This document shows positions 32,877 through 56,849 of a stretch of 64,000 nucleotides of DNA, piece by piece. How positions within the stretch are numbered: the first letter of the stretch is position 1; every line of letters starts with the position of its first letter. Position numbers and translations under genes: made by a program. The DNA comes from Clostridia bacterium (GTDB lineage Bacteria; Bacillota; Clostridia; TANB77; CAG-508), in assembly GCA_900753245.1 (NCBI GenBank), contig CAADYJ010000080.1, forward strand, positions 3,228 through 67,227. The letters run 5' to 3'. The notes under the pieces are model-generated. The model was not told the origin of the DNA. It did not search any database and worked only from the letters and a program-made list of their open reading frames with translations.

Positions 32877-33500
32877 TTATTCAGTTGGCGGTGTGAGGTA
32901 GCAAGTTAATTTTTCTTTAGTTGCAATATTTCTAAGTGAAAATTCTTGTTCTCCATCCCAGTTAGAATATTCTGGATGGTATTCTACATATTTAGGCCAT
33001 TCTGAAACTTTTGAACCTAATGCAACTTTAAATCCATATCCATCCAAACCTTTGTTAAATAGTATTTTGTCTGCTGATTTTAATTGGTAATGCTGGTTCT
33101 CTTCCATATTAATAATATACTCTTCACTTTCATTATATATTACTATTGCTGGTTTGGCAGATTCTAATTGTCCCATATAATCTTCCATCGATGTAAAATC
33201 TGTGATGTATGTTACTTCACCTGGATCTGCAGAATCTGTTTCTTCTGCTGTTGTTTCTTCCTCTACTGTCTCATCTTCACTTGTTGTTTCCTCTGTTACT
33301 GCTTCATCTTCTTTTGTTTCAGGTTCTGCAGTAGGTTCTTCTTTTACTTCTTCAGTTGCTTCTTCTACTGTTGGCGTTTCGTCTGTAGCAACTTCTGGCT
33401 GTGTTTCTGCTTTTGAATTGCCACACCCAACAAGTAAACAAGCAATTAAGCTTAATGTAACAAGTAACCGCATTGATTTTGTTTTGTAATTCTTTTTCAT
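32877..33500 (-). CDS. lipoprotein with an acidic Thr/Glu-rich linker
   Basis: Lipobox LLVGC after a basic N-terminus. Then ETQPEVATDETPTVEEATEEVKEEPTAEPETKEDEAVTEETTSEDETVEEETTAEE low complexity. Unknown C-terminal domain. Confidence 0.55.
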   Translation of the reverse strand: MKKNYKTKSMRLLVTLSLIACLLVGCGNSKAETQPEVATDETPTVEEATEEVKEEPTAEPETKEDEAVTEETTSEDETVEEETTAEETDSADPGEVTYITDFTSMEDYMGQLESAKPAIVIYNESEEYIINMEENQHYQLKSADKILFNKGLDGYGFKVALGSKVSEWPKYVEYHPEYSNWDGEQEFSLRNIATKEKLTCYLTPPTE

Positions 33501-33675: not shown

Positions 33676-36600
33676 CTATTTTTTTAGTATTTTTCTTCTA
33701 ATAAATACTATTCCTCCAGCTAATAAACCAATTGCTATAATTGTTGTAATTGTAATTATAATGTATAATCCTGCATTACCAAATGGTGGTAATATTTTTA
33801 CTATTTCTGCTCTGTCTGAATCTATTTCTTGTGGTTCCATTGTTGGATCTTGATTTCCTACTACAGAATATTCGTTTCTTCTTCCTACATTGTTGCTTGT
33901 TTTTACTATTTCTACAATATTCTTGTATGTTAAATCATCTGTTTTGTTCTCTGCAGTTATTAATTGTGTTAATACTAAATTTGTACTTGCACTTGATTTT
34001 TTATTATCATAAAGATCTGGCACTAACTCTGTTTTAGCTATTGTAGCATTTTCTTTGGTTGTAATTATTGTATTATATCGTTCTACTTTTGATTTCAAAT
34101 TCTTATTTACTAAATCTTGAGTTTTATCTTGAGTTATTAACTTATCTTGAGTTATTACTTCCCAATCTGTATTTTCAGCTAAACTACTATCAAATTGTAA
34201 GTTATTTGCTACATAGTCTATTATTTGATTTGCAGTTGTTTTTACTATTGTGTTTTTATCGGCTACTGTTCCTGTGTAATAGAATTGATTATCTTTATAG
34301 TCTACTTCACCAACATTTGTTACTGTTATTTGGTAAGTAATTTGTATTTTTGCGCCATGCATTAATTCTTCATCCATGCTTAATTGAATTAATCCTAATC
34401 TAGAATCTTTTGTATTTTTTGCTCTAATGTTTGCTATACTTCCAAATTTATTTTCATCTAACATATTATTTTTATATCCTGTGTCATATTTTTTGTGATC
34501 TTTCCATAATATATTACTTGCTGTTTGTTTTGCATCAAATAGTGTAGATCCATCTGCTAATGTAAGTTTTACATTTGTTACTTCTTTATTTATTTCAAGT
34601 TGTGCTTTTGGTCTTTCTTCTAATCCTAAATCCACATTTTGAACTTTATATATTGAAGTATCTTGTACTGCATCTTTAGTATCTGTTTGTGTTCTATCAT
34701 ATTCGAATTCTATAACCATCATACCTGTTTCTGCTGTCATTTTAGTATTGTCAATTAAATCTTTTATTAAGTCTTCTCTTGAATTCATTGTATTATAATC
34801 AGCTTTATGAGCTGCTAATACTTCTGCTTTATAGTTTGTAACATTTTTTTCTGAATATTCTATTACTTTGTTTCTACGAGATTCTATATCTTTTGCATCT
34901 GATGCGTTTTGATTTTTGCTTAAAGATATACTATCCGCAGTAGTTATATCATACAAATATCCTTTTTGTTCATTATCGTTAAGTTGTTTCTTTATTGCTG
35001 TTTCATTATTTGTACAATTATCTGTATTATAAGCATGTATTTTTGTTATTATTTCTCCTTTTTGTTCTTGTCCATTTACCCATGTAGAGTTTCTTCTCCA
35101 TTCATATGTTTTGTTTTGAGGTATATCTTTTTGATATGTTGTAGATTTATAGTCTTGTCCATTGTAAGATTTGCTATTTAAGCCTCCTAATTCGCTTGGA
35201 TATACAGTTCTTACTGTATCACCATATATAAATCTTACTACATATTTACCAGGCATAAATGATTTAAATGCATATTTTCCTTTATGTTCATTTCCTAAAT
35301 CTATATTTCCTACAATGTTAGATAAACCTATAATTGGTGTTTCAGATTGTACAGTTCCTGAACCAGTTCCTTTTCCTATTGCATTTGTTCCAAAGTTACC
35401 TATTTGATTTGTTCCAAATTCTCTCCATACAAATTCTTTTCCATCATCTAATAATTCTACTAATTGTACAGTTACACCATCTATTAATGTTTCTGAGTTT
35501 TCTCTTAAACCATTTCCTATTGCTACTTTTTCTCCACTTACTTTTCTTTCATCTTCCCATACAGTTCCAGATATTACTCTATTATGATCATCATTGCGAT
35601 CTATTTTTAATTTAATATTTGGTGCTTTATCTGTATCGTCTTCAAAGTTTTTATAATTAGGTGTTCCATCTTTTGGTACATCTGTTGGATTTAAGTTACC
35701 TGGATTTGAATCTCTATCTACAATACCTGCTGGTTGTCCTGATACATCTCCTTCTACGTTTGGTATTGTTGTTCCTTCTTTATATTTAGTAGTATATCCA
35801 TTTATTTCTGCAATATTTTCTTTACCTACTCCAATTACATTTCCTGTTGCTAAATCTTCATCTAGTATAATCCAATCTTCATTGTTTTCAGTCTTTTTGT
35901 TTACTTCGAATGTTAAGTAAATATATGCTGTTTTTCCTGAAGTTAAATATAAACCTTCTGCTTCACTTCTTACATTATTTCCATTATTATCTATTTCTTG
36001 AGAGTTTTTGCCTAAACCAGTAATATATAAATTTTTATAATGGTTTATATCTGTTCTTGTTCCAGCTTGTTTATATATGCTTGCATTATTACCATTTACT
36101 AAGTATTTTTTATTGCTAACTTGAATATATGAACGTTCTGGTACATAAGTTAAATCTTCATCATAGTAATCTACTATTTCGTCTGCTCTACATAGTATGC
36201 TTTGTGATTGGTTTCTTACTCCTATTTTGTATGTAATATATACTTTTAATTCGTCATCTTTACTCTTTCCAAGTTCATTATAATTTCCGTACATACTTAC
36301 TTTGTATGCATAATCAGATGCATATAATTCTCTAGTATATTCTGTATTGTAATAACGTTTTTCTGAATCTATAAGTCCTATATCAGATAACCTTAAATCA
36401 ATATCCCATACATTTTGTACATTTTCACTTCCACAGTTTGGACATGTATTTACACCATAATCTTCTGAAAAGTTTAATTCATCATTTGTTCCTGTTCTTC
36501 CACAATTATTGCATTTAAATTTATCTAATTTATTGTATGTGTATTCATGTGTTTGACCATTTGTCTCTAGTGTTACTTTATATACATCTTTATTTAAAGC

Positions 36601-39600
36601 TAAATCTGAAGTTCTTCTTAATGTATATCCTTGATTAATGTATAAGTTAGCATCATTTTTGTATAAGTAATGTATTTTTTTTTCTATTACATTACTTCCA
36701 TTTATTTTTAACCCCTTCAATAGATTTAAATTGTATGTTGTCGTTCTCTTCTCTTGTTTATTTTTATCTTCTATTAATTCTTCATCTCCTGTAGCTATAA
36801 TAAAATTTGAATATATTGGATATAAATCGTTCTTACGCACTGTTTTATTGTTTTGTGTTACATCTTTTCCTGTATAAGAATTTAACATACAATCTTTTAC
36901 ATATTGTATCATTTCATTAATTTCAGTAGTATTACTATTTGATTTTTCTTTTATTAAGTTTCCAAATTCATCTATAACAGCTTCTTTTGTTTTTACATAT
37001 TCACCATTTTCGTTAAGAGTATAACCTTGTAATTGTTTTTTAGTAAATGTTTTATTTGTTCTATTGTTTTCTTCTGTTACAGTATAGTTTGCAGGTGATG
37101 AACCTATTGATGCAAATCTTGCATTTATTGCTTTTCTTTCTTCTTGTACATCTGTACCATTAGAATTTATATTCCAGGTTCCTTCTTTATTTTCTTCATA
37201 CTTAACCCATCCGTCGCCTTTATCAGATGGACTTACATATTCTACTGGTTCATAATATTGTGAATTATATGTAAATTCTACAAAATATTGATACATAGAA
37301 TTTATTCCTGTGAATAAATACCTACCATTAGAATCTGTTTTAGTTGGATTTTGTATTTGTTCTTTTTTTCCTTTTTTGTCTGTACCTTCATATGATGTTA
37401 ACTCAGCTTTTATTTTATTTCCATTTTTATCATATCTATATAAAGTTACAATTACGTTTGGCATAGGTTTATCAGTTTGATTATTTATTGCTTTTGATTT
37501 ATCGTATACATTATCATTTTCTGTCATCTTTCCGCCTTTTGTGTCTTCCCAAACTTGTCCGCCAAGTTCCATTGTTAAATCTAAATCATATGGTGTTATA
37601 GTTACTGTATACTTTTTCCATGTTCTTTTTCTACTTGTTAACATTGCTAATTTTTGTGCATTGTATTTTATTTTTGTATCTTCTTCCCAAGTTTGAAATC
37701 TGTATTTATAATAATAATACGTCCTTATTGTTATTTCAGTATCTCCTTCACCATCATTATCAGTATCTACCCATTTTTTATCACATCCACTTTCTGTTCC
37801 AGTATTTTCCCATTTCAATCTTCCTCTTATCTGAAGAATTCTTCCTTTTCCAGTATATGTTGTATATTTAGCTTCTGTAGTTTGTAAATATGCGAAGTTC
37901 ATTTTTACTTCTACTGATGTAGGATAATTAGCTTCTTCCGCATTAAATTTTACCCAAAATTTTTCACCACTTGTTGGATATTCATTTCCATTAAGTGTTA
38001 TAATTTGTATTTTATCTAATCCTAATTTTGTAACATTATTATTTACTGCTGAATTTTTAGTTTCTATCCATATATCTTCTATATATGAAAATTTAAGATT
38101 ATCTGGATACTGTACTGAAAAAGGTCCTGCTATATATGTCTTTTTATCTCTTTCAACTACTATCTTAGAATCCGAACTAAATGGTACTACATGATCTTCA
38201 TAATTTTTTAAATATGTATTGTAATAATCTTGATATTTATCAGCTTCTTCTTTTAAGGATGTTGCATTACTATTACTATCTGAGGTATCGTAAGCATCCC
38301 CTTCATTAAATCCAGGTTTATCCTTCCATAAAGCGTCTTGTATTACTTGTTCATCTGCTATATCACTAAATGTTGATGTATAATTTCCCTTTTTAAATTT
38401 TATTTTATCACTAGTAGGGCTAAATTCTGGTCCTGAACTTAATATATATGCTTCTTTATTATTTTTAGGTGTTGAGCTTCCCGCTTCTGACCATGTAGGT
38501 GTTTCGCAATATACGTTTCCATAATATTCATTCTCTCTAAAATCATCTATAATTGTTGGAGTTGTAAAACTAAATCCTTTATAATATTGAAATAACTGTG
38601 TTGATACATTAGTTGATGCTTTATAATAGTCTCCTCCATCTAATAGCTTTTTCGCTTCAGCTTTTGCTGAGGCTTTTCCTGCATATGTATAATAATTTAT
38701 TATTCTTTCATCTATATTTCCTGTAACATATTGATCAATTCGGTTAATAACTGGTGTAAATCTTATACTTCCATGTTTTTGTTTGCATAATAATAAACTT
38801 AGAGTATCTTTTATTGTTTTATTATTTTCTCCTCCAGATATGCTATAATTATGACTACCATTATTATAAATTGTAGGTAAGAATTCTAATTTATTTGTAT
38901 TAGCATCTGTATGTTTCCAATCATAATGTGCTGTTTTATCCCAAGAACCTGGATTTTTTGTTATTTCTGTTGTGTTAGCTGAAGCATTAAAATGTTTTTT
39001 ATTTATATCTTCTATTTCTTCAAGCGAAGCTCTCACTTTACTTACAAGTACTCTTTTTATTCCTCCACATGTATATTCAGTTACATTTCCTACTTTTACA
39101 GTTGCTGTACATTTATATTCTTTATATGTGCATTTATATGTTCTATCATTTATATCTTCAAATACTGTTACTGTTCCAAGATATTGTAATGGTCCAACAT
39201 GATTATCTGGGTCAAGTCCATAATTATATTTTTTTCCATTATAAGTATATTCTGCATTACTATATATTAAACTTGAATCTTGCACTTCTTTTTGATAATC
39301 TTGCTCATCATTTTTATACGTTTCACAACAAGGATACCATTTATGCCAAATTGCATAATTATTACATGTTGCTTTCTTTTTTCTATGCTCTATAGGCGCT
39401 TCTTCATGTTCATCTGGATTATAAACTAATTCCGTATGACTTGGATGTTTTGAACATTTATATTCTATAGCTGTTATACATGTTGGATCAGGATCGTTGG
39501 CATTGCATTTTTCTAGATAAGGTTTATGATTTTTTGAATTTATTTTTGTATCATAATCTTTTCCACATGATTTACAATGATTTTTTCCTTTAGTAACACA

Positions 39601-39972
39601 ATCCCCTTTAGAAACTGGTGTTTGGTCTCCTACATGATTATTAGGATCTATATCTCCTACATCGTAATCTTTATTACATGATGTACAATGCATTTTTTTC
39701 TTTGATATACAATTAGCTGCTGATTGTGTTTTTTGTGTTCCTGTATGGTTATCTGCATTCTTACTACCTTTTCTATATTCTTGTTTGCACTGTTTACAAT
39801 ACCATACTTCTCTACTTGTACAAGTAGCATCTGCTCTCTTTTCTTGTTTTGTATCGTCATTATGTGTACATTTAGTTGCTCCAATTGATTGAGTAGAATA
39901 TATTACTGTTAAACCTGCAAAAGCTAAGAATAACGCTATTAATATAGTTATTATTTTCATTCGTTTTTCCAC
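33676..39972 (-). CDS. giant secreted cell-surface protein B1 (2098 aa): signal peptide, Cys-rich repeats, Cna-B/SdrD-B-like and DUF11-like domains, C-terminal sorting-signal-like tail (ILPPFGN + TM + RRKILKK). Probable GTG start
   Basis: Cna-B-like units, for example QVWEDTKGGKMTENDNVYD...NVIVTLYRYDKNGNKI...TDSNGRYLFTGI and ISGTVWEDERK...GVTVQLVELLDDGKEF. C-terminal ...IQITYQITVTNVGEVDY.... Paralogous to B2 over the C-terminal ~900 aa. GGAAGGTG RBS lies 7 nt before the GTG, which is 19 nt after the A1 stop. Confidence 0.75.
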   Translation of the reverse strand: MEKRMKIITILIALFLAFAGLTVIYSTQSIGATKCTHNDDTKQEKRADATCTSREVWYCKQCKQEYRKGSKNADNHTGTQKTQSAANCISKKKMHCTSCNKDYDVGDIDPNNHVGDQTPVSKGDCVTKGKNHCKSCGKDYDTKINSKNHKPYLEKCNANDPDPTCITAIEYKCSKHPSHTELVYNPDEHEEAPIEHRKKKATCNNYAIWHKWYPCCETYKNDEQDYQKEVQDSSLIYSNAEYTYNGKKYNYGLDPDNHVGPLQYLGTVTVFEDINDRTYKCTYKEYKCTATVKVGNVTEYTCGGIKRVLVSKVRASLEEIEDINKKHFNASANTTEITKNPGSWDKTAHYDWKHTDANTNKLEFLPTIYNNGSHNYSISGGENNKTIKDTLSLLLCKQKHGSIRFTPVINRIDQYVTGNIDERIINYYTYAGKASAKAEAKKLLDGGDYYKASTNVSTQLFQYYKGFSFTTPTIIDDFRENEYYGNVYCETPTWSEAGSSTPKNNKEAYILSSGPEFSPTSDKIKFKKGNYTSTFSDIADEQVIQDALWKDKPGFNEGDAYDTSDSNSNATSLKEEADKYQDYYNTYLKNYEDHVVPFSSDSKIVVERDKKTYIAGPFSVQYPDNLKFSYIEDIWIETKNSAVNNNVTKLGLDKIQIITLNGNEYPTSGEKFWVKFNAEEANYPTSVEVKMNFAYLQTTEAKYTTYTGKGRILQIRGRLKWENTGTESGCDKKWVDTDNDGEGDTEITIRTYYYYKYRFQTWEEDTKIKYNAQKLAMLTSRKRTWKKYTVTITPYDLDLTMELGGQVWEDTKGGKMTENDNVYDKSKAINNQTDKPMPNVIVTLYRYDKNGNKIKAELTSYEGTDKKGKKEQIQNPTKTDSNGRYLFTGINSMYQYFVEFTYNSQYYEPVEYVSPSDKGDGWVKYEENKEGTWNINSNGTDVQEERKAINARFASIGSSPANYTVTEENNRTNKTFTKKQLQGYTLNENGEYVKTKEAVIDEFGNLIKEKSNSNTTEINEMIQYVKDCMLNSYTGKDVTQNNKTVRKNDLYPIYSNFIIATGDEELIEDKNKQEKRTTTYNLNLLKGLKINGSNVIEKKIHYLYKNDANLYINQGYTLRRTSDLALNKDVYKVTLETNGQTHEYTYNKLDKFKCNNCGRTGTNDELNFSEDYGVNTCPNCGSENVQNVWDIDLRLSDIGLIDSEKRYYNTEYTRELYASDYAYKVSMYGNYNELGKSKDDELKVYITYKIGVRNQSQSILCRADEIVDYYDEDLTYVPERSYIQVSNKKYLVNGNNASIYKQAGTRTDINHYKNLYITGLGKNSQEIDNNGNNVRSEAEGLYLTSGKTAYIYLTFEVNKKTENNEDWIILDEDLATGNVIGVGKENIAEINGYTTKYKEGTTIPNVEGDVSGQPAGIVDRDSNPGNLNPTDVPKDGTPNYKNFEDDTDKAPNIKLKIDRNDDHNRVISGTVWEDERKVSGEKVAIGNGLRENSETLIDGVTVQLVELLDDGKEFVWREFGTNQIGNFGTNAIGKGTGSGTVQSETPIIGLSNIVGNIDLGNEHKGKYAFKSFMPGKYVVRFIYGDTVRTVYPSELGGLNSKSYNGQDYKSTTYQKDIPQNKTYEWRRNSTWVNGQEQKGEIITKIHAYNTDNCTNNETAIKKQLNDNEQKGYLYDITTADSISLSKNQNASDAKDIESRRNKVIEYSEKNVTNYKAEVLAAHKADYNTMNSREDLIKDLIDNTKMTAETGMMVIEFEYDRTQTDTKDAVQDTSIYKVQNVDLGLEERPKAQLEINKEVTNVKLTLADGSTLFDAKQTASNILWKDHKKYDTGYKNNMLDENKFGSIANIRAKNTKDSRLGLIQLSMDEELMHGAKIQITYQITVTNVGEVDYKDNQFYYTGTVADKNTIVKTTANQIIDYVANNLQFDSSLAENTDWEVITQDKLITQDKTQDLVNKNLKSKVERYNTIITTKENATIAKTELVPDLYDNKKSSASTNLVLTQLITAENKTDDLTYKNIVEIVKTSNNVGRRNEYSVVGNQDPTMEPQEIDSDRAEIVKILPPFGNAGLYIIITITTIIAIGLLAGGIVFIRRKILKK

Positions 39973-39990: not shown

Positions 39991-42900
39991 CTATCCTAAT
40001 ATTTTTCTCTTTATTACATAAGCACTTGCTGTTATAGCACTTATTATTCCTAAACTTAATACTATAAATAATATTGTCTCACCAGTTTTTACTGTTAAAA
40101 GTACATCTGCTGAAGACATATCATCTTCTCCAGATACTTTATTTGCTGGTGTTGAGTCTACATCTTGTAAGCCTAAGTCATTATATGCTTCTTGTATTTC
40201 TGCTGTATTATTAATTAACCCTACATTTTCTTGTGTTAGCTTTTTAGTTAATAATAATGTTATTTCTTTTGTTTCTCCTGGATTAATTAAAGTATTTGCT
40301 AAACTTGAACTATAAATTGCTCCATTTTCTCCTTGATACCAATCTTTATTTAGTTCTGAATTGAATTTTAGTTCTGCTGGAATGTAGTCTGCTATTTTTT
40401 TAGCATATCCAGATACAGCACCTTCGTTAGTTACTTTAATTTTATATTCTATTACAATTGTTGTAGAATTAATTTGTTTTCCTACTAAATCACGTTTTGC
40501 AAGTTTTGTATCTTTATAATCATATGTTTTTGTTCCTGTAGAATCTTGAACTGTTATTTTTGATACTGCTTTGTCTAGTTTTAAGTCAAATTTAGGATTT
40601 ACTACTAACCCTAAGTCTATATTATAGATATTTGAATTTGTTACTTCTATTTCTTCTGTTATTGCTGCTGTTCTTTTTTCTTCTCCTAATATTATTTGTG
40701 TATCTATAGCATCTGAATTTAATGTTGAATCTACTCCTTGCTTTCTATAAGTAGTGCTACTGTAATTTGCTGTATCGTATAAGAATATTACTGTATATTT
40801 TCCTTTTGGTACTTCTGTAAATGTGTATTTTCCATCTTCTGATGTTGAAATTTTTTCTTTTTCTAAGTTTCCTGTTACATTGTTTAATAACATAACTTCA
40901 ACATTTTGCATTTTCTTTTCTTGTTCATCTTTTTGTCCATCTTTATTTTCATCTAGCCATACTTGTCCACTTATTCTTTTGTTTTCTGACACATTAGGAT
41001 TATCATTGTCTGTAATTTCTGTAGCCTTTAAAGTATGTGAAATAGAATTTATTTCTATTTCTTTTTTATCTATTGTTGCTGTTATTTTATTTGTTATTTT
41101 TGTATCTTCTTCAACATACCCTACTCTAGCATATATCTTTATTTCTTGCTTTTCACCATCCTTTAATGCTAATATAATTTTTAGTTCATTGTCTTCTGTT
41201 AAAACTATTCCTTTTATTTCTTCTTCTTTTAAATCTTTCATTATTGTAGCTTTTTCAAATACTAATTCTTTTGGAAATTTATCTATAAGTTTTATTCCCT
41301 TACTTTCTCCTGTTTTACTTCCTTTAGATTCTATTATAATTTTATATTCAAATTCTTCTGTTCCACTTATATTTTCTCCTTCTGGTATAGTACAAGATTG
41401 AGTTATACTTAAAGAATTTTTTATAATTGTTATTACTTTTTCGTCTGTATTTTCTTTTTCTACATTATCTGCATATACAGTAGTTTTTATTTTTAAATCT
41501 TTAGAATATACTTCTTCTTTTGTTTCTTTTACTTTTAAATTTATTTTTAAAGTTTGAGAGTCTTGAATTTTTAGTTCTAATCCTGTAATTTTCAAAATTT
41601 CTGTTTTTTCATCATATGTTATTTTCGATTTATCTATTTCTTGTTTTCCATATGTTGCTTTTATAAATTCTAATTCTGTAGGTATATTAATTTCTATTAT
41701 AGTATTTTTAGTTTCATAATATCCATATATGTTTAACTCATAATTAACATTCGTTCCTTCTTCTACATTTTTTATATTGTTTTCTTCATTATCTACTGAT
41801 ATTTCTTGTTCTAAAGAAAAAACCTTATTTCTTACATAGTTAGTTATTTTATCTGTTTCTATTTTGGCTTCTAATCCTTCATATTCTATTGTAGCTTGTG
41901 TCGAGATCTCTTCTTTTTCATTAATATCTCCATCTATTCTTTCTATATAAAATTTAAATATTTTTTCTATTGTTTCTCCTTGTTTTAATGTTGATATTGT
42001 ACATATTCCATCTTTAATATTTTCATCATCTCCTGAATATATTGCATTTTCAGGAGTTGGAACTGTTATTTTTAAATTATTAGCTGCTAAATCTCCAGAG
42101 TTTGTTACTTTAACTGTATATTCAATTTCATCGTCTGATAATATTGTTGCTCCATTTTCTACATTTGCACTTATACTTGCTTCTATTTTTGGTCCTTGTC
42201 CTGTTGTTGCACCAACTTTTGCTGTTTCTTGTCTATCTTCTACTGTTCCTTCTTCTAAATTATTTGAATAATATACTGCATATGTTTCAAATGAAGATTG
42301 GTTATGTTCTAGTCCTTCTTCTACATTTGCATTATAATTAAATGTTATTGCCTCTCCTGTTGGCATAACATAATCGTTTGTTACTATTAAATAAGATTTA
42401 ACTTTACTTAAATCTGTTGGTTCTGCTACCCATCCATTTGATTGTACATTTAAGTCTTTTGTTGCTTCTCCATTTTCTGAGTAATAAACTTGTACTTTAT
42501 TTGAATCTATTCCTTCTACACTTATTCCTGTTGTTAAGTCTAAATCCATTGTTGAGTTTAAATCTTTGTTGCTTAATATTTCTTTGTTTCCTGCAAATGG
42601 TGTTCTTCCTAAGATTGAAACATTTTCTATATCGTTTTTATAGTTATTCATTACACTCATTTTAAATGTTGCTTCTTTTTGGCTTGATAGTATTGGTAAT
42701 TCTGCAACTTTTTCTTCACCTGTAATTGATGTTAATTCTTCTGCTCCATCTTTATAGTTACTAATTCCATTCATTGTAACTATTCCAACTGGTGCTGAAA
42801 AACTTATTTTATTTGTTACTTCATTTATTTCTGAGTTTTCATCATTTTCGTTTGTTACTACCATTGATATTTCTGAATCTATATTTGGTGTTAGTTTGTT

Positions 42901-44904
42901 TACTGTTATGTCTGCTGTAATAACTACGTTTGTTCCTCCTGCTAAATTTTCTAAATTATATTGTGTTTGTGTTCCTTGTAATTCCAATGCTATTGTTTTT
43001 GTTCCATCTGCATTTTGTATTAAGTTTGCATTTTTTACTGTTAATTCTTTATCAAATAATACTTGTATGTTTTTTACATTAATACTTTCTATATAAGAAG
43101 GTAATTTAATTTGTATTGTTGGATTTTTATATAGTTTGCAATCTAAAGAGTTTGTTTTTAGTATTGCTTTTATTTCTACATTTTCGTTTGTTACTACTGT
43201 TGATAGGTTTTGATTGTTTATTACTAATTCTGTTTCAAAACTTGGCTCTACAAATGCTACTACTTTATTTGCTGTTTTTTGTTCTACTATTTGTCCTGCA
43301 TATATTGCATCTACAGTTGTATTTATTTCTAATGAAGTAAATTTTTCCATTTGCTTTTTGCTGTATTTTATATCTGTTTTTATTGCTTTTGTTGCTTTTA
43401 CTTTTATTTCACCTTCTGTTAATGGTTTGCTTGTTTCCATTGCAATTTCAGAGGCTTCTATATTAGATATGTCTACTTCATATTTTTCTTTGTTTATTGT
43501 GTCTATTATTGTGTTTCCTACTTTTATATTAATAAATCCATCTTCTCCTAAGAATTTATTAAACTCTTCTTTTTCTACACTTACTTTCTTAATATATTGT
43601 GTAGCTGCTCCTTTTGTTTTTTCGTCTATTACAAAGTTATCTGTATTTAAGTTTATTGCTATGCTATCTACTATATCTACTAATCCTATATTGGCTGTTA
43701 TGTTTTCTTCGTATTGTGTTTCATTTTTTTCTGTTGCTTCATAATTTGCATATATATAACCTTTGCTTAATGTTTCTACGTTAGTGTTTACTTCTGTATT
43801 TATTACGTTTCCTATTTGATCTTTTAATAGTATTTCTCCTTTTGCTTCATTTTCTATTATGTCTTCTTTTGCTCCATATGTTGTTATTTGTGCTTTTGTT
43901 TGTATTTGTATTTTATTTCCTTCTTCTGGCACATTGTTTAATATTTCTTGTGGATATATGTATGTTATTATGAATTTGTCTTCTGCATTTTTACTCCAAG
44001 AAATATTTCCTTGTTCATCTATTTTGTTTTCTACTTTTATTGTTATTTTTCCTGTTTGTTCGTCATATTGATAGTTTTCTTCGTTAAAGTTTTGTGCGGT
44101 TTCGTCTCCATTTGTTGCTTTTGTACTTTCTGCTACTATTTTTACTGAAGTTGGTTTTTGGTTTGCTATTACTGGTGCTATTATTTCTATATTTTCTTCT
44201 TTTACTGGCATAGCATTATTGGCTACTGATGATTTTATTTGTGTTTGTAACATTACTCCTTGGTTGTTTGCTACTGTATATGGTATATATCTTGTAATTT
44301 GTTCTTCTAATGCTAATGTTGTTTCTTGTGTCCAATCTAGTTTTACTTTTATTTGTGCTTTTATTTGTTTTTCTTTTCCTTTTGCATCTATGTATGTTCC
44401 TGTCAATTTCGCTATGTTTTCTTGACTAAATTGGTTTAATGTTATTGTATCTTTATTGTCAAAAGATATTGGGATTTGAACACTTACTTGTTTGTCTTTA
44501 TTGATTTGGTTTAGTTCTATGCTATTTTCTTCTTTGTTTAATTTTGCTACTGCTTTATTTTCTTGTGCTAAGTCTTGTAGTTTAAAGTTTGCAGTTTTAT
44601 TTTCCTCATTTGCTCCAAATTCTATTTTTGCATTTTTTAAATATCCAGCGTTTTTAACAGCAATACCTATGTTAATGCTGTTTTCTTCTCCTATTTTGCT
44701 TTCTTTTTCGTGTGTCTTGCTATTTTGACTTACAAAGTACGCGTCAAATTCTACATTTTCGTTGTTTGTTTTCACACCTTGTACTTCTAGTTCATTTTCT
44801 GCTGCATATACTTTTTTCGCATAAATTCCTATTGTTGATGCATATGCTAAAAGCATGACCATTACTATTTCACTTGCTATTATTTTGCGAATTATTTTTT
44901 TCAT
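39991..44904 (-). CDS. giant secreted cell-surface protein A1 (~1637 aa from the second ATG): multiple Ig-like/DUF11 repeats, a Cna-B domain, isopeptide-pilin-like C-terminal domain, C-terminal LLTVKTGE + TM + KRKILG
   Basis: Signal peptide MKKIIRKIIASEIVMVMLLAYA. DUF11-like YTVKVTNSGDLAANNLKITVP. Cna-B ISGQVWLDENKDGQKDEQEKKMQNVEVMLLNN...DGKYTFTEVPKGKYTV. GGGGAGG RBS sits before the second ATG (44904). Paralogous to A2. Confidence 0.75.
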   Translation of the reverse strand: MKKIIRKIIASEIVMVMLLAYASTIGIYAKKVYAAENELEVQGVKTNNENVEFDAYFVSQNSKTHEKESKIGEENSINIGIAVKNAGYLKNAKIEFGANEENKTANFKLQDLAQENKAVAKLNKEENSIELNQINKDKQVSVQIPISFDNKDTITLNQFSQENIAKLTGTYIDAKGKEKQIKAQIKVKLDWTQETTLALEEQITRYIPYTVANNQGVMLQTQIKSSVANNAMPVKEENIEIIAPVIANQKPTSVKIVAESTKATNGDETAQNFNEENYQYDEQTGKITIKVENKIDEQGNISWSKNAEDKFIITYIYPQEILNNVPEEGNKIQIQTKAQITTYGAKEDIIENEAKGEILLKDQIGNVINTEVNTNVETLSKGYIYANYEATEKNETQYEENITANIGLVDIVDSIAINLNTDNFVIDEKTKGAATQYIKKVSVEKEEFNKFLGEDGFINIKVGNTIIDTINKEKYEVDISNIEASEIAMETSKPLTEGEIKVKATKAIKTDIKYSKKQMEKFTSLEINTTVDAIYAGQIVEQKTANKVVAFVEPSFETELVINNQNLSTVVTNENVEIKAILKTNSLDCKLYKNPTIQIKLPSYIESINVKNIQVLFDKELTVKNANLIQNADGTKTIALELQGTQTQYNLENLAGGTNVVITADITVNKLTPNIDSEISMVVTNENDENSEINEVTNKISFSAPVGIVTMNGISNYKDGAEELTSITGEEKVAELPILSSQKEATFKMSVMNNYKNDIENVSILGRTPFAGNKEILSNKDLNSTMDLDLTTGISVEGIDSNKVQVYYSENGEATKDLNVQSNGWVAEPTDLSKVKSYLIVTNDYVMPTGEAITFNYNANVEEGLEHNQSSFETYAVYYSNNLEEGTVEDRQETAKVGATTGQGPKIEASISANVENGATILSDDEIEYTVKVTNSGDLAANNLKITVPTPENAIYSGDDENIKDGICTISTLKQGETIEKIFKFYIERIDGDINEKEEISTQATIEYEGLEAKIETDKITNYVRNKVFSLEQEISVDNEENNIKNVEEGTNVNYELNIYGYYETKNTIIEINIPTELEFIKATYGKQEIDKSKITYDEKTEILKITGLELKIQDSQTLKINLKVKETKEEVYSKDLKIKTTVYADNVEKENTDEKVITIIKNSLSITQSCTIPEGENISGTEEFEYKIIIESKGSKTGESKGIKLIDKFPKELVFEKATIMKDLKEEEIKGIVLTEDNELKIILALKDGEKQEIKIYARVGYVEEDTKITNKITATIDKKEIEINSISHTLKATEITDNDNPNVSENKRISGQVWLDENKDGQKDEQEKKMQNVEVMLLNNVTGNLEKEKISTSEDGKYTFTEVPKGKYTVIFLYDTANYSSTTYRKQGVDSTLNSDAIDTQIILGEEKRTAAITEEIEVTNSNIYNIDLGLVVNPKFDLKLDKAVSKITVQDSTGTKTYDYKDTKLAKRDLVGKQINSTTIVIEYKIKVTNEGAVSGYAKKIADYIPAELKFNSELNKDWYQGENGAIYSSSLANTLINPGETKEITLLLTKKLTQENVGLINNTAEIQEAYNDLGLQDVDSTPANKVSGEDDMSSADVLLTVKTGETILFIVLSLGIISAITASAYVIKRKILG

Positions 44905-45366
44905 AGTTCTTTTTCCTCCCCAATTTTTTGACATATTTTTGGCTTATTATATATATTAACTAAATTTTTGCATATTTTTTGTCGTTTTTCAAGGTGTTTT
45001 CCTTTGATAGCAAGCGTTACAGCGTTTATCTCTTTACGGAAACTAGTTTTCAGCTTTTTTTATTAAATTTTAGTTACATTGTTACATTTTTATTTCTTAT
45101 TGCTTTTTTGCTGTTTTTTTCCATTTTTTTATTTTTTATATTTTTTGTATTCCTTCTGTTTCTAGTATTTTATGTTTTTTATTGTATTTTTTGTTTTTAT
45201 TGATTTTTTTTATTTTTTATTTTTTTGTCTTTTTTAGCTTGTAAATACTACGGCAATTGGATTTGCGTGTTTTTTAACTTTTATCTTAATTCAACTAAAT
45301 ATCTAACTTGTACTTTTGTATAAATTGATTAAAGTTATAATTTATAATACTTTTTCTTGTTTTCTG

Positions 45367-45566: not shown

Positions 45567-46568
45567 TTGACTAAAAAAAATCTTCCAGCTCCTAAAATGG
45601 ATGTTGTTTTTCAATCTCTTTTTAAAAAGGGAAATGAAAATATAACTATGGCACTTATTTCTGACATTATAGGTAGAAAAATTAAAAAAATAGATTTAGA
45701 TAAAAACAAAAGTTTACTTAGAGAATATACTAAAGATAAATTGGGAATTTTGGATCTAATTGCTGTTTTAGACGACGGTGATATTTGTAATATTGAAGTT
45801 CAACTAGCTGATAATAAAGATATAGAAAAACGCTTATTATATTACCATTCTAAAATTTATTCTCAACAGATGTTGGTTGGTGACAAATATGTTGATTTGA
45901 ATAAGACTATTTCTATTGCTTTATTAGATTATAATTTAGAACAATTACGTCATGTAGAAAAAGCTCATACTTCATGGCATATTAAAGAGGATGAAATTAA
46001 TGGATTAATATTGACAAATGAGTTAGAGATGCATATAATAGAGTTACCAAAGATAAGAAAGATGAGTAGGAATGGTAAAAAAGATGCTATTATTGATTGG
46101 ATGTTATTTTTGGATAATCCAAATAATAAGGAGGTTTCTGAAATAATGAAAACAAACAGAGAAATAGAAGAAGCAATGCAAAAGTTAGAGGAAATCACTT
46201 CTGATGAGGAATTAATGAGAATTATTGATTTAAGACGAAAAGCAATATTAGATGAAAATCAAAGAAGATATATTGCAGAAAAAGAAAGAAAAGAGGCCGT
46301 AGAAGAAGCTGTTAAAGAAGGGCTTGAAAGAGGCATGAAACAAGGTATAGAACAAGGCATTAAAAAGGGTATTGAACAAGGCATTGAACAAGGCATTGAA
46401 CAAGGCATTGAGCAAGGAATCGAGCAAGGAATCGAGCAAGGAATCGAGCAAGGCACTAAAAATGAAAAATTTAGAATTGCTAAAAATTTGATTTCTCTTA
46501 AATATGAAATTGATAGTATTGTAAAAATAACTGGCTTATCTAAAGAAGAAATTGAAACTATTTTATAA
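45567..46568 (+). CDS. Rpn-family (YhgA-like, PD-(D/E)XK) recombination-promoting nuclease / putative transposase, intact. TTG start
   Basis: 333 aa. Contains the D...DxxxE(V)Q block (ILDLIAVLDDGDICNIEVQLAD), a coiled-coil C-terminal half, and the conserved tail ITGLSKEEIETIL shared with the 7644 pseudogene. Confidence 0.7.
   Translation: MTKKNLPAPKMDVVFQSLFKKGNENITMALISDIIGRKIKKIDLDKNKSLLREYTKDKLGILDLIAVLDDGDICNIEVQLADNKDIEKRLLYYHSKIYSQQMLVGDKYVDLNKTISIALLDYNLEQLRHVEKAHTSWHIKEDEINGLILTNELEMHIIELPKIRKMSRNGKKDAIIDWMLFLDNPNNKEVSEIMKTNREIEEAMQKLEEITSDEELMRIIDLRRKAILDENQRRYIAEKERKEAVEEAVKEGLERGMKQGIEQGIKKGIEQGIEQGIEQGIEQGIEQGIEQGIEQGTKNEKFRIAKNLISLKYEIDSIVKITGLSKEEIETIL
46344..46451 (+). repeat. 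Coding microsatellite: 9 tandem 12-nt units (GGCATTGAACAA / GGAATCGAGCAA) encoding (GIEQ)n in the Rpn protein
   Basis: Read directly. The protein shows GIEQGIKKGIEQGIEQGIEQGIEQGIEQGIEQGIEQ. Confidence 0.85.
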
Positions 46569-46633: not shown

Positions 46634-49600
46634 TTATTTTTTTAAAAATTTCTTTTTGATAACAATTATTCCTATTACTAAAATTCCTACGGCTGCGAAT
46701 ATTGTGCTTGTTATAATTATTATATTCTTCATTTCACCAAATGGTGGTAATATTTTCACTACTTCTGCTTTATCACTATCTACTTCTGCTGATTCTGACG
46801 TTGGATCTTGATTTCCTACTATAGAATAACTGTTTATTCTACCTACTGTATTACTTGTTTTAACTATTTCTACTATGTTTTTATATGTTAAGTCTGAGCT
46901 TTCATTTTCTGGTGTAATACTTTGTGTTAGATATAAAGTTTCTTCTGCACTACTATTTCCTCCATTTGTTTGTGAGTAAATAACTGGTACTAATGGTGTT
47001 TTATTAATTGCACTATTTTCTGTTGTTGTTATTATTGTATTAAATGTATTTACTTTGTCTTGTAATCTAGCATTTACTAACTTTTGATTTGTTATTTCTT
47101 CTTTACTTATTACTTTCCAGTTAGAGTTTTTAGTATTATCAAATTGTAAATTATTTGCAACATAATCTATTACTTGGTTTGCTGTAGTTGTTGCTACTTT
47201 CTTTTTATCTGATACTATTCCTGTGTAATAGAATTGGTTATCATTATAGTCTGTTTCTCCTACGTTCGTTACTGTTAATTTATAAGTAATTTGTATTGTA
47301 GCACCATGCATTAATTCTTCGTCCATACTTAATTGTACTAATCCTGATTTTTTTGCATTAGAATTTCTTATTTGAGTTAATATTCCTTTTGCATAAACTG
47401 GTTCATATGTTTCATTTTTCTTCCACAATACATTTGTTGCTGTTTGCTTTGCATCAAATAATACTGAACCATCTGCAAGTACTACTTTTACATTGTCCAC
47501 TTTTTTGTTTATTGCAAGTTGTGCTTTTGGTCTTTCTTCTAATCCCAAGTTTACGTTTGCAACATTGTATTGTATGTCATTGTTTCCTTGTTGATTTCCT
47601 AATTCTATTTTATCTTTTTCTACTTCTACATTAATGTTACCTGTTTCTGCTGTCATGGCTGTTAATTGTTTAAATTTTTCTATTTGTTGTCTTAATGTTT
47701 CTTTTGTTGTTCCTTCTGGAACATTTCTATAAGATGCTAATAATTCTGCCATTTCGTTTGTTATATTGTTAGAAGAATTTTTTATTGTTTCTTGTCTACG
47801 GCTTGCAATATCTTTTGCCACAGATACATCTTTTCCGTCTAATGCTGTTATATTATATAAATATGTTCCTGTTTCATTTTGATTTGCATAGTCTTTATAA
47901 CCATATATATCTTTATTTAAATATTTTAAGTAATATTGTCCTTCTTGAGATATTCCTGGCTCATATGTTGTTGATTTATAGTCTTGTCCATTGTAAGATC
48001 TTGAATTTTTTCCTTTTGCTCCTAATGTATTTGTTACGTCTGTTTGTGTATTTGTTAATACTGTCTCATCGTTGTCTCCGTAGATAAATCTTACTATGTA
48101 GTTTCCTGGTACAAATGATGTAAATACATATTTACCTTTTGTATTATCTGTTACTGTTTGTACTATGTTATTTGAATTAATTATTGGTTCATATGTTCCT
48201 TGGCCTGTTAAAAATTCTTTCCATACGTATTGACTACCATTATCCATTAATTCTACTAATTGTACTCTTACTCCGTCAATTCCTTCTTCTCCTTTTTCTT
48301 TTTTACCATTACCTGTTGCTGTTGCTTGAGCTTTTTCATATTCTGTTCTATTATCTTCCCAAGCTGTTCCTTCTATTGTTCTGTTGTCTTTTTCTAATAT
48401 AACTCTTAAGTTTATTGCTTTATCTGTATCATCTTCAAATTTATTTACATCTACTGGTGACTCAATATTTCCTGGTACAGAATCTCTATCAAAAAGTCCT
48501 GCTACTTTATTATTATCTGTTAATCCTACGTTTGGAATTTCTGTTCCTTCTTTATATTTTGTGCTATATCCATTTATTTCTGCTATATTTTGTTTTCCTA
48601 CATCTTGTTCATCTAAATAGATAAATCTTGATGGATCCTTTCTTACTTTAAATGTTAAGTAAATATTGGCTGTTTGTCCTGATGATAAATATATTTCATC
48701 TAAGCCTGTAATATATAAGTTGTTATACCCTTCACTTTCTAATGATGTTCTTGTATTTGCTGAATATTTACTTTGTTCACTTGCTTTTACATTTTCATAT
48801 TTTACCTTGTTAGCTCCACTTCCAATTTCTATATATGAACGATCATTTACATATTCGTATTCTTTATCATAGTAATCTACTATTTCTTCTATTTTTGTTC
48901 TTATTGATTGTGATTGGTTCCTTACCCTAATTTTATATGTTACATATACTTCTAATTCTCTTTGCTCAGTTTCTCCATATTTTTGAGCTATTTGATTAGT
49001 ATTCAATGAATTTTGTTCTGAGTAATCTTCTACTTTGTATAGGTAATCTGATTTGTATATTTCTCTTGAATATTGTGTATTATAATATGCTGCATCTGAA
49101 AGTCTTACTCCTATATCCCATATTGTATTGTCGCCTTCTTGAGTTACTTGTTCCTCTTTTGCTCTTTGGTTATAGTAGTATGTTTCTTGTCTTCCTTTTA
49201 TTTCTATTGTTGCTTTTTCTATTTCTTTCATTAATGCTACATCTGCTACTTCTCTTCTTGCTAAGCCAAAGTCTATTTGTAGATGCTCTGGATATAATGC
49301 TTTATATTCTACTCCCATTATTGTTCTTGATTTATATCCTATAGTATATTTATCATATATTGGATATACTTTTCTTTGAGTATCGTTTCCTGTAAATGAT
49401 GATATTCTATTGTCTTCTATGAATTGTAATTTTCTTTTTGTTTCTTCTGTGTTTCCAAATTTTTCTAATGCATTTTTATATGCTTTTTCATAACTTTTTG
49501 TTTCTGATGCTTGATCTATTACGTATTCATATATTTCTTTTATTCCGGATTCAGATTTTTCATTTATATCACTTGTATATGTATTTCCTGATGCATTACT

Positions 49601-51313
49601 ATATTTTAATATAGTATATGCTTTATTGTATGTTCCCACTTCGTAATATAATTTTCTTCTTACTTTGTAGTTTTCTGGATATGAACCTATTTGCTCGTAG
49701 TCTAAATTATATTGTTCTCTTTGTGTTTTTATTTCTGTTGCATTTGAATATCCGCCTGATAAGTTATCTTCGTAATATGTTGGTTGATACATTTGTCCAT
49801 TATATATAAATTCTATATAATATTTGTATTTAGAATCTACTTTATCAAATTCATAATGTCCGTTTTTATCTGTTACTGTTCTTGCTACTTCTTTGTTTTT
49901 AGATGCTTCATATAGTACAACCTCTACTCCAGGTAACATTTTTTCTGTTTCATCTTTTTTACCATTTAATTTTGTCTCTTTTGTTTGTTTATCATCTTCC
50001 CATACATTTCCTGCTAATTTAATTGTTAGATTTTTCTCTCCTGGTATTTTTATATCAAGTGATGTACTTTCTAAGTGCCTTTTTCCATCTGGTTCTAATT
50101 GATCTTGATATGCAACTATTTCTTCTTGGAATTTAGTTGATACCTTGTCACTATAGCAACATCCTGAACAGTATGTTATTCCGCCTTTTCCATCTGAATG
50201 ACCATCACAATGTGCTGTATGTGAATGTGAGAATACTGCAACATATTTATGTGATTCAAAATAGTATAATTTTGCTTCTGCTTTCATCCACTTAAAGTCT
50301 ACATGTATATTTTTTATATGTATATCTTTGGGAGCTTTTATTTTTATATAAAATTGTTGTCCTGATGCTGGGTAATTTTGTGCTCCAGTATCTACTAAGT
50401 TTTTGTCATCTACTGGTGTAAAATATCTTGGTTTTATTTCTTTTTTAAAGTTTCCTTCAGAGTCTTTTACTATAAATGATTCTATTTCTATACGATCTGT
50501 TTTTTCTCCTACTACATACATATCTGATATTCCACCAAATACTATTCCATAATTTCCATTTATATAAGTCATAGAAAATGGTCCTACTAGGTATTCTTGT
50601 TTTGTATAGTCTCCTAATACTCTAACATTTTCTTCTTTTGTTGTATTTTGTGGATTCATTGTTCCATTATTTTTATCTAGTTTTCTTGCAAATTGTTCAT
50701 AATATGCTGCTTGTAATGCTAATTGTGATGCTGTAATTCCATTTCCTGTTACTTTTGGTGCTTTTTTGTTTTTATTCAATGTTGGTGTTTCCCATATTGC
50801 TTCTTGTTTTATTGCAGACCAACTATTCCAGTCTGGATCAGGATAAGTTACTATAAAAGCTTCTGTATATGTTGCTGCTTTTTGTTCTTTTAAGAAGTAA
50901 TATGGTCTAGAATAGATTTTTCCTTTTCCTGCATCTGGTGTTGTTACTTCTCCATGTGCTGATTCTTTTCCATTCCAAGTAGTTACCAAATCTTTTATAT
51001 CTTCTTTTGTCTTTCCTTTTCCACTTAAGTGTGCACCTTTAGCTGCACAATATAACTGTCTTTGATCTACTAATACTCTCCAATAACTTGAATCTCCACT
51101 TTGTATTTTTTGAAGGTTGTCTGTATTTACTTCAAAGCTTCCTCCAATGTTTCCACTAGATCCATAGTCTGCAAGTGTTGGTGCTTGTTTAACTTTTTGC
51201 AATGCTACTGTTTGTGAAATAACATTAGGGGATTTTTTTAGTAAAATATATCCTAATACTAATGTTAATAATATTATTATTGCTATACTAGTATTTTTTA
51301 TTATTTTCTTCAT
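46634..51313 (-). CDS. giant secreted cell-surface protein B2 (1559 aa), paralogue of B1. C-terminal ILPPFGE + TM + KKKFLKK
   Basis: Signal/TM MKKIIKNTSIAIIILLTLVLG. Cna-B-like LPGVEVVLYEASKNKEVARTVTDKNGHYEFDKVD. The C-terminal ~900 aa are collinear with B1 (GLEERPKAQL..., LSMDEELMHGA.IQITY..TVTNVGE.DY.DNQFYYTG...). AGGAGGGG RBS lies 5 nt after the A2 stop. Confidence 0.75.
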   Translation of the reverse strand: MKKIIKNTSIAIIILLTLVLGYILLKKSPNVISQTVALQKVKQAPTLADYGSSGNIGGSFEVNTDNLQKIQSGDSSYWRVLVDQRQLYCAAKGAHLSGKGKTKEDIKDLVTTWNGKESAHGEVTTPDAGKGKIYSRPYYFLKEQKAATYTEAFIVTYPDPDWNSWSAIKQEAIWETPTLNKNKKAPKVTGNGITASQLALQAAYYEQFARKLDKNNGTMNPQNTTKEENVRVLGDYTKQEYLVGPFSMTYINGNYGIVFGGISDMYVVGEKTDRIEIESFIVKDSEGNFKKEIKPRYFTPVDDKNLVDTGAQNYPASGQQFYIKIKAPKDIHIKNIHVDFKWMKAEAKLYYFESHKYVAVFSHSHTAHCDGHSDGKGGITYCSGCCYSDKVSTKFQEEIVAYQDQLEPDGKRHLESTSLDIKIPGEKNLTIKLAGNVWEDDKQTKETKLNGKKDETEKMLPGVEVVLYEASKNKEVARTVTDKNGHYEFDKVDSKYKYYIEFIYNGQMYQPTYYEDNLSGGYSNATEIKTQREQYNLDYEQIGSYPENYKVRRKLYYEVGTYNKAYTILKYSNASGNTYTSDINEKSESGIKEIYEYVIDQASETKSYEKAYKNALEKFGNTEETKRKLQFIEDNRISSFTGNDTQRKVYPIYDKYTIGYKSRTIMGVEYKALYPEHLQIDFGLARREVADVALMKEIEKATIEIKGRQETYYYNQRAKEEQVTQEGDNTIWDIGVRLSDAAYYNTQYSREIYKSDYLYKVEDYSEQNSLNTNQIAQKYGETEQRELEVYVTYKIRVRNQSQSIRTKIEEIVDYYDKEYEYVNDRSYIEIGSGANKVKYENVKASEQSKYSANTRTSLESEGYNNLYITGLDEIYLSSGQTANIYLTFKVRKDPSRFIYLDEQDVGKQNIAEINGYSTKYKEGTEIPNVGLTDNNKVAGLFDRDSVPGNIESPVDVNKFEDDTDKAINLRVILEKDNRTIEGTAWEDNRTEYEKAQATATGNGKKEKGEEGIDGVRVQLVELMDNGSQYVWKEFLTGQGTYEPIINSNNIVQTVTDNTKGKYVFTSFVPGNYIVRFIYGDNDETVLTNTQTDVTNTLGAKGKNSRSYNGQDYKSTTYEPGISQEGQYYLKYLNKDIYGYKDYANQNETGTYLYNITALDGKDVSVAKDIASRRQETIKNSSNNITNEMAELLASYRNVPEGTTKETLRQQIEKFKQLTAMTAETGNINVEVEKDKIELGNQQGNNDIQYNVANVNLGLEERPKAQLAINKKVDNVKVVLADGSVLFDAKQTATNVLWKKNETYEPVYAKGILTQIRNSNAKKSGLVQLSMDEELMHGATIQITYKLTVTNVGETDYNDNQFYYTGIVSDKKKVATTTANQVIDYVANNLQFDNTKNSNWKVISKEEITNQKLVNARLQDKVNTFNTIITTTENSAINKTPLVPVIYSQTNGGNSSAEETLYLTQSITPENESSDLTYKNIVEIVKTSNTVGRINSYSIVGNQDPTSESAEVDSDKAEVVKILPPFGEMKNIIIITSTIFAAVGILVIGIIVIKKKFLKK

Positions 51314-56331: not shown

Positions 56332-56528
56332 TACATAATCCTCCTACTATATTAAACTCTAAAATTTATTATACACTTTTTTTCCAGTTTTTTCAAGGTT
56401 TTTGTAAAAAAAATGAACTTTTTATGTAATCTTTTAAAATGTTTTTTATTGATATTATTTATTTTTATATTTTTTGTAACATTTTTTCACTTTCTTCATA
56501 TTATTATATATATATGAGGGGTGATAAT

Positions 56529-56849
56529 ATGGACGAAGATTTCCCTAATTTTGATGATTTTTGTTCTTCTTTTGAAGAACAAAATGATAATAATACTTCT
56601 ACAGATAATAATTTTTCTGATTTTTCTAATATGTTTTCAGGAATTGATATGAGTACTTTGTTAAAAATAAAAGGAATAATGGAAAAAATGAATCAAAAGA
56701 AAAATGATCCACGATCTAATTTATTATTGTCTCTAAAGCCTTATTTAAAGCCTAGTAGGCAAGATAAGGTTGATCAATATATTCAAATTTTTAATATGAG
56801 TAGTCTTCTTGAAAATATAAACTTTATGGGTGGTGAGAAAACAAAATGA
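56529..56849 (+). CDS. small acidic hypothetical protein (about 106 aa from the internal ATG)
   Basis: GAGGGGTG RBS before MDEDFPNFDDF... The upstream part of the listed ORF is an Ile/Tyr-rich extension with no RBS. The stop overlaps the next ORF's start (ATGA). Confidence 0.4.
   Translation: MDEDFPNFDDFCSSFEEQNDNNTSTDNNFSDFSNMFSGIDMSTLLKIKGIMEKMNQKKNDPRSNLLLSLKPYLKPSRQDKVDQYIQIFNMSSLLENINFMGGEKTK

Follow-up and report, generated by a model that had tools for sequence, protein, structure and literature searches.

The criteria used for sortase substrates are a motif located 17–45 residues from the C-terminus, a hydrophobic segment and two or more basic residues in succession (PMC4155245). The stalks of fibrillar adhesins contain DUF11, a CnaA-like isopeptide domain that has been renamed CLIPPER (PMC12617251). 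Here, we analysed a stretch of 64,000 nucleotides of clostridial DNA (contig CAADYJ010000080.1; hereafter, the window), in which two paralogous genes, A1 and A2, encode long adhesin-like proteins ending in TVKTG-E and SIKTG-E, respectively, each followed by a partner gene, B1 or B2. The A tails belong to an anchoring module formed by [S/T/G]-[V/I/L]-x-T-G, a transmembrane (TM) helix of about 22 residues and a terminal [K/R/N][K/R]xV[L/I]. The module is carried by giant fibrillar-adhesin-like proteins with a CLIPPER/DUF11 stalk in uncultured gut Clostridia of low G+C content (GC), and it probably represents a form of the sortase signal that lacks proline.

The two A C-termini had been proposed from inspection of the DNA alone (the initial annotation) as non-canonical sorting signals with a tripartite architecture. 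Translation of the minus strand confirmed both pentapeptides and the succession of motif, hydrophobic segment and basic tail in A1 (...SSADVLLTVKTGETILFIVLSLGIISAITASAYVIKRKILG, window 39991–40140) and in A2 (...SSADLVISIKTGEIVGIVGFISALICIAIIAIGYVSYNKMKKITYPRRRG, window 51319–51480). A plus-strand reading of the same region was ruled out, as stops occur throughout, so the minus strand ought to have been specified; position 39991, from which the initial annotation counted, marks the stop codon's first base. The features of the A genes are as follows:

39991–44934, minus strand: A1 gene, an open reading frame (ORF) of 1647 aa, comprising a signal peptide, a stalk of DUF11/CLIPPER repeats, an SdrD_B domain, a terminal CLIPPER-like domain and the TVKTG tail
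40081–40095, minus strand: A1 pentapeptide TVKTG, from translation
40012–40077, minus strand: A1 hydrophobic segment TILFIVLSLGIISAITASAYVI, 22 aa, from translation and AlphaFold
39994–40011, minus strand: A1 basic tail KRKILG, from translation
39994–40020: junction between TM helix and cytoplasm in an A tail
51319–56331, minus strand: A2 gene, an ORF of 1670 aa, paralogue of A1
51436–51450, minus strand: A2 pentapeptide SIKTG, from translation
51361–51432, minus strand: A2 hydrophobic segment, 24 residues
51322–51360, minus strand: A2 basic tail NKMKKITYPRRRG

Both tails agree with the description of sortase substrates given above, the motif Gly being 29 residues from the C-terminus in A1 and 38 in A2, and the basic residues forming the run KRK in A1 and KK...RRR in A2 (PMC4155245). 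The N-termini, MSKNWGGKRTMKKIIRKIIASEIVMVMLLAYASTIGIYAKKVYAAENE in A1 and MYTIKKKIIASLLITIIVMTNLTIIVKGAGISYADN in A2, resemble signal peptides as judged by eye. A1 matches Pfam SdrD_B (2.1e-15), DUF11 (3.4e-10, 40.7 bits against a cutoff of 24.6) and TIGR01451 (4.9e-07, 29.7 bits against a cutoff of 24). A2, which is 46% identical to A1 across the final 279 aa, also matches SdrD_B and exceeds the TIGR01451 cutoff (36.5 bits), while its DUF11 score, 20.1 bits, lies under the cutoff. Only four ORFs in the window end in a motif, a hydrophobic segment and a basic tail, namely A1, A2, B1 and B2.

The Thr-Gly pair is the fixed element of the A tails. In the 279-aa query taken from the end of A1, T249 and G250 were invariant in all 59 aligned homologues, at a mean column identity of 36%. 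Related loci were retrieved by scanning a genome collection with a 16-sequence alignment, and in 82 A-type ORFs with a recognizable tail (84 sources) Thr and Gly were again invariant, preceded by G, T or S, then by V (44), I (22), L (9), T (6) or P (1), and then by K (68), R (6), V (5), Q (2) or E (1). The codons of both residues vary in these ORFs, with ACA (56), ACT (24) and ACG (2) for Thr, and GGT (57), GGA (19), GGC (5) and GGG (1) for Gly. In most of these orthologues, the residue after Gly is polar (E, K, Q or D), Glu being found in 44 of the 82; many LPXTG signals read LPXTG[E/D]. When a profile covering the terminal domain together with the tail was searched against 1.84 billion cluster representatives, 4494 relatives were obtained. 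Of the 148 best matches newly listed among them, 115 had the tripartite tail, and 114 of these 115 representatives, mutually <50% identical, carried T-G, the lone exception being P0228, with SG; the scripted count was 112, and P0198 (MPKTG) and P0254 (GVATG) were added after reading the tails. Thirteen residue types were found immediately before Thr in the tail-bearing representatives, while the second residue before it was V, I or L in 104 of 112 (about 93%) and Pro in 2. Substitution of Thr by Ser, Asp or Asn was limited to that single SG in about 200 sequences. Judged from these alignments, a free X next to an invariant Thr and Gly reads as an LPXTG-type constraint, unlike that of a generic helix cap.

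The cytoplasmic end of the tail is patterned too. The representatives end in KKYVL, NKKVL, KKKVL or KKFV[IL], with [KRN][KR]xV[LI] as the family consensus, and the junction between TM helix and cytoplasm, G-x-[Y/F]-x-I-[K/N]-K-[K/Y/F]-V-[L/I], is common to A and B proteins and conserved across clusters <50% identical. Many proteins of a sister subfamily terminate precisely at ...IKKYVL.

Several members of the family connect the A tails with LPXTG-type signals. Proline occupies the position of the LPXTG Pro in GPKTG (L074, P0059), SPGTG (P0025) and MPKTG (P0198), and the X position in SIPTG (P0160). At locus L089 (29% GC), three adjacent paralogues end in ...IIVAPKTG, ...FIVSVKTG and ...IIIAVKTG, so that Pro and Val replace one another at a single aligned position in the same genome. 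On the hidden Markov model (HMM) TIGR01167 (LPXTG_anchor, cutoff 15.9 bits), the A1 tail scored 14.0 bits and that of a GPKTG orthologue 15.0 bits, both below the cutoff; the A2 tail had no match, and PF00746 was not matched. The kinship to (S/P)PKTG-like signals suggested in the initial annotation is supported by the GPKTG, SPGTG and MPKTG members, by the L089 paralogues and by the A1 score. The motif is, moreover, undescribed in NCBIfam (release 20) and Pfam, since no sorting-signal model of these libraries reached its cutoff on the A tails. In the literature that was searchable, nothing relevant was found on LPPFG, on VKTG or IKTG as sorting signals or on TANB77 in connection with sortases. 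Taken together, a site derived from LPXTG that is recognized by an enzyme offers the best explanation for the T-G invariance and for the interchange of Pro and Val in one genome.

An AlphaFold2 model of the last 279 aa of A1, built with the 59-sequence alignment as input (mean predicted local distance difference test, pLDDT, 90.6), shows an SdrD_B domain and, after it, a beta-sandwich. Residues 238–248 (MSSADVLLTVK) form the final strand of this sandwich, so T-V-K ends the strand; T249 is the sole residue in neither strand nor helix, and the helix extends from G250 to 278. As T-V-K is placed within the last beta-strand, only T-G needs a separate explanation, and in the model strand periodicity appears sufficient to account for the small-aliphatic-basic pattern that precedes it. 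A five-residue recognition peptide, [TS][VI]KTG, as initially envisaged, was not borne out, given that only T-G is invariant and [TS][VI]K lies in the strand; the motif should be restated as [V/I/L]-x-T-G, with only T-G specific to the signal. The terminal sandwich has structural matches in CARDB domains, in CnaA-type pilin and adhesin domains and in integrin alpha leg domains. Three residues of the 202-aa terminal segment, K10, D71 and N131, are invariant and would be compatible with a Lys-Asp/Glu-Asn isopeptide triad. The name CLIPPER was also considered as denoting a self-cleavage that releases the protein, and this reading was rejected. The tail is found in a different context in P0132, encoded in a genome of 70% GC, which ends in ...TTPADPELTSSPEAQDPPTSIVRTG, a TM segment and RRR. 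Here, the motif region reads PPTSIVRTG and comes after a disordered Thr/Pro-rich linker, with no beta-strand before it, indicating that the motif is not bound to one domain.

The partner B proteins end in a second motif, which the initial annotation had overlooked and which has Phe at the sortase Thr site. Their tails take the form ...KILPPFG, a TM segment and (R/K)(R/K)K(I/F)LKK, and in the window they comprise the following features:

33676–39972, minus strand: B1 gene, encoding 2098 aa and beginning 18 nt downstream of A1
33778–33792, minus strand: B1 LPPFG, followed by a TM segment and RRKILKK
33679–33705: junction between TM helix and cytoplasm in a B tail
46634–51313, minus strand: B2 gene, encoding 1559 aa and beginning 5 nt downstream of A2
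46736–46750, minus strand: B2 LPPFG, followed by a TM segment and KKKFLKK

Among 83 B tails from the related loci, LPPFG (55) and TPPTG (22) predominate over LPPYG (2) and LPPTG, IPPTG, NPPTG and MPPYG (1 each); in the protein database, 49 of 57 read LPPFG, 2 LPPYG and 1 each LPPLG, IPPTG and LPPTG. The Pro-Pro pair and Gly are invariant, and the 'scissile' position varies. TPPTG and LPPTG are the tails of clades other than that of the window. The LPPTG orthologue passes TIGR01167, with 21.8 bits against the cutoff of 15.9, and LPPTG-type tails have sub-threshold matches to NF033846 and NF058670. In the B1 model, obtained with an alignment of database homologues (AlphaFold, pLDDT 80), the strand ends at L223, PPFGN (224–228) is coil and the helix starts at residue 229.

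The B proteins have other features of their own. Several Cys-rich repeats (C..C...Y/D...NH.G...) occupy residues ~35–330 of B1 (~38980–39870, minus strand) and are absent from B2; they are atypical for an extracellular adhesin, and a weak zinc-ribbon match was found in B1 residues 1152–1188. Segments resembling the Cys plus TQxA[IV]W thioester signature are present in B2 (YCAAKG...IKQEAIW, residues ~85–175, ~50790–51060, minus strand) and in B1 (LLCKQK...VIQDALW, residues ~395–560). A thioester domain in B was nevertheless rejected, as the Pfam TED profile was unmatched even at E<=10 and no PDB sequence relative was found. TED is matched by more distant relatives, namely the first two L089 paralogues (those ending in APKTG and SVKTG) and, faintly, P0141.

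In the reading that we favour, the module would derive from an LPXTG-type sorting signal in which Pro was replaced by a beta-branched or aliphatic residue, and this residue would double as a core residue of the last beta-strand. The A protein would be exported by Sec and retained by its TM helix and basic tail. A putative sortase encoded elsewhere in the genome would then cleave between the invariant Thr and Gly and transfer the Thr carboxyl to peptidoglycan. Such cleavage is the likeliest of the readings of the A tails, with about even odds.

Five observations weigh against this proposal. Neither the 64-kb window nor 89 related loci (~1.5 Mb) yielded a sortase when searched by phmmer with Staphylococcus aureus SrtA and SrtB, by a TLxTC regular expression and through precomputed Pfam tables, although a housekeeping sortase elsewhere remains compatible with this result. 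The B proteins, encoded in the same operons, have F, Y or L in place of the scissile Thr, the residue at which a sortase forms its acyl intermediate, and a Thr-specific sortase provides no explanation for this. Positions P5–P3 of the A motif are inside a confidently predicted beta-strand, with no linker before the TM helix, so a sortase would need either to peel the strand away or to read little beyond T-G. The conservation of the junction between TM helix and cytoplasm (G-x-Y-x-I-K-K-x-V-L) exceeds what a discarded retention signal needs. Finally, SPKTG is cleaved experimentally by Clostridioides difficile SrtB, but the NVQTG of CbpA was left uncut by it in two independent in vitro studies (PMC4155245, PMC4371152), and as NVQTG is the only studied precedent containing Val, this argues against cleavage by that class B enzyme. 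The class B-like sortase suggested in the initial annotation found no support.

Alternatively, A proteins may be type-I membrane proteins whose anchor is never cleaved, with T-G serving as a hinge or helix N-cap and the likeness to LPXTG being ancestral or coincidental. The passage of the strand straight into the helix, with Thr alone between them, suits such an anchor, and beta-strand periodicity together with membrane proximity would account for the aliphatic, small and basic residues before T-G. The retention of the junction motif in divergent clusters and in B, the behaviour of the B PP[F/Y/L/T]G as a structural hinge unlike a sortase site, the lack of a linked sortase in the 89 loci and the failure of NVQTG as a sortase substrate all point in the same direction, and among the top structural analogues of the terminal domain are the calf domains of integrin alpha, with a TM helix after them. 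However, a cap or hinge should tolerate Ser, Asp and Asn, of which the ~200 sequences offer one SG. Exchange of Val for Pro in paralogues of one genome would be odd at a buried strand position, and in P0132 the motif follows a disordered linker. We consider a permanent membrane anchor the main alternative, if a less probable one than cleavage.

A further possibility is a new, sortase-independent system, likened to those of exosortases, archaeosortases and rhombosortases, in which a dedicated membrane enzyme would read both the A xTG and the B PP[F/Y/T]G by means of the shared KKxV[L/I]. Two distinct and individually invariant motifs on obligately paired proteins with a common junction would fit such a system, and Phe, Tyr or Leu at the 'scissile' position of B does not agree with any sortase specificity that is known. 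The tails match none of the known CTERM models, and PPFG is reminiscent of PGF-CTERM. In a search of 14 A and B tails, no PEP-CTERM, PGF-CTERM, GlyGly-CTERM or other CTERM model of NCBIfam was matched at E<=10, and the lack of any match to an exosortase-type signal model speaks against this idea. No candidate enzyme was seen, the conserved neighbours being housekeeping genes (mreBCD, pbp2, minC, spoIIE), and the B orthologues with canonical LPPTG, TPPTG and IPPTG point back to a sortase. We regard a dedicated non-sortase enzyme as improbable. It is similarly doubtful, in the broader form of the idea, that the A xTG, the B PP[F/Y/L/T]G and the KKxV[L/I] junction are cognate signals either of a sortase-independent system or of a sortase with a radically altered, Phe-accepting S1 pocket, in either case devoted to the giant adhesin pairs of uncultured gut Clostridia. 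Chance resemblance, with no function beyond a C-terminal TM helix, might be entertained for so short a motif, particularly as the A2 tail matches no sorting-signal model, but it is contradicted by the conservation of T-G in hundreds of sequences at <=45% identity while synonymous codons turn over, and we give it almost no credence.

The genomic setting is consistent across the family. The window has a GC of 27.6% and encodes, as identified by eye, rpoB/C, mreBCD, pbp2, minC and spoIIE, which points to a Firmicute that forms spores and has a low GC. Homologues of the A C-terminal region were obtained solely from metagenomes and metagenome-assembled genomes, labelled uncultured Clostridia or Clostridium sp. 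CAG:508, CAG:245 and CAG:780, bins that we take to belong to the GTDB order TANB77. Their recorded sources are human (Hadza, Nepal), rabbit, mouse, chicken and deer, and the closest relatives of A1 are 74–81% identical, an exact-sequence look-up of A1 having returned no record. A B gene is located immediately 3' of A in all 84 sources (83 loci and the window, where the gaps are 18 nt for A1-B1 and 5 nt for A2-B2), and the pair is often duplicated. Synteny in the related loci is fixed: mreC, mreD, pbp2, minC, two small divergent ORFs, A-B and spoIIE. When the 771 flanking ORFs of these loci were clustered, no linked processing enzyme was found among them, only the housekeeping synteny and a WG-repeat protein.

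Some neighbouring genes deserve mention. The two small ORFs at 56430–56846 and 56837–57157 (both plus strand), divergent from A2 and located between minC and the A-B locus, are kept in 38–42 related loci and have no Pfam match in the precomputed tables. Directly downstream of B1, positions 32877–33500 (minus strand) encode an acidic Glu/Thr-rich lipoprotein of 207 aa with an LVGC lipobox, homologues of which lie between or after the A-B pairs in a few relatives (L005, L009). Between the two A-B pairs, on the opposite strand, the gene at 45567–46568 (plus strand) appears by eye to be an Rpn/PD-(D/E)XK transposase-like gene. Its product has a (GIEQ)n repeat near the C-terminus, and a paralogue of the same cluster is found 38 kb away, at 7644–8309 (minus strand). 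This transposase-like gene may have been the agent of the A-B pair duplication.

In several metagenome strains, the A gene is interrupted while the adjoining genes are intact, and for this reason database matches are fragments of 200–490 aa. The break is either an in-frame TAA, where the intact CAG:245 orthologue (L062) has TCA, or a frameshift in an A-rich run, and such breaks are located in L001 (4689–4691; also in L002–L004), L084 (9401–9403), L005 (~9938–9956) and L085 (~9060–9112). These interruptions could be due to pseudogenisation or phase variation. An alternative genetic code was rejected as the cause of the split genes, since TAA replaces TCA, the other cases are frameshifts or scaffold Ns, and the neighbouring genes are intact.

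Tripartite C-terminal signals on fibrillar adhesins are already known, and the A tail is thus a variant rather than a new category. It is a widespread one, present in >100 clusters mutually <50% identical, and it escapes pattern searches that require Pro. In gut Clostridia that are abundant but uncultured, the A-type proteins probably serve as the main adhesins. If the tails are cleaved, the Pro-less [V/I/L]-x-T-G would broaden the accepted recognition rule of sortases, and a large class of surface proteins would be overlooked by LPXTG/PXTG patterns and by HMM cutoffs. If they are not, an LPXTG-like signal would serve as, or have turned into, a permanent membrane anchor, which would be a caution for the motif-based prediction of wall-anchored proteins. 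More puzzling still is the LPPFG of the B proteins, in which Phe takes the scissile position, and either outcome would inform the evolution of sorting signals.

With respect to known systems, the A proteins resemble the CLIPPER adhesins in matching DUF11 (A1) and TIGR01451 above the cutoff and in their CARDB/CnaA-like terminal domain. The description of those adhesins covers the stalk domains and no anchoring signal, and its characterised example is unlike the A proteins in being Gram-negative and having an OmpA-like anchor (PMC12617251). The (S/P)PXTG signals of C. difficile are approached by the A tails in that the X position is most often K, the residue present there in SPKTG and PPKTG, and in the rare members GPKTG, SPGTG and APKTG; with the NVQTG of CbpA the A tails have Val at the Pro position in common, both organisms being low-GC Clostridia. 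Among the variants represented in NCBIfam, srtB_target (TIGR03063), Rumino_NPXTG (NF033846) and sorting_LPXTATN (NF058670) are, like the A motif, lineage-specific variants of LPXTG in which the tripartite layout is preserved. None of them reached its cutoff on the A tails, and to our knowledge, judging from their names, all three retain Pro. The closest comparison is with LPXTG itself (TIGR01167/PF00746). Although the A tails are without Pro (V, I or L in about 93% of the representatives), have S, T or G instead of Leu at P5, place the first three motif residues in a folded beta-strand and score 14.0–15.0 bits against the cutoff of 15.9, they share with LPXTG proteins the N-terminal signal peptide, a T-G pair located 29–38 residues from the C-terminus, the hydrophobic segment and basic tail, a free X with invariant Thr and Gly, a polar residue after Gly and a distribution among long adhesin-like surface proteins.

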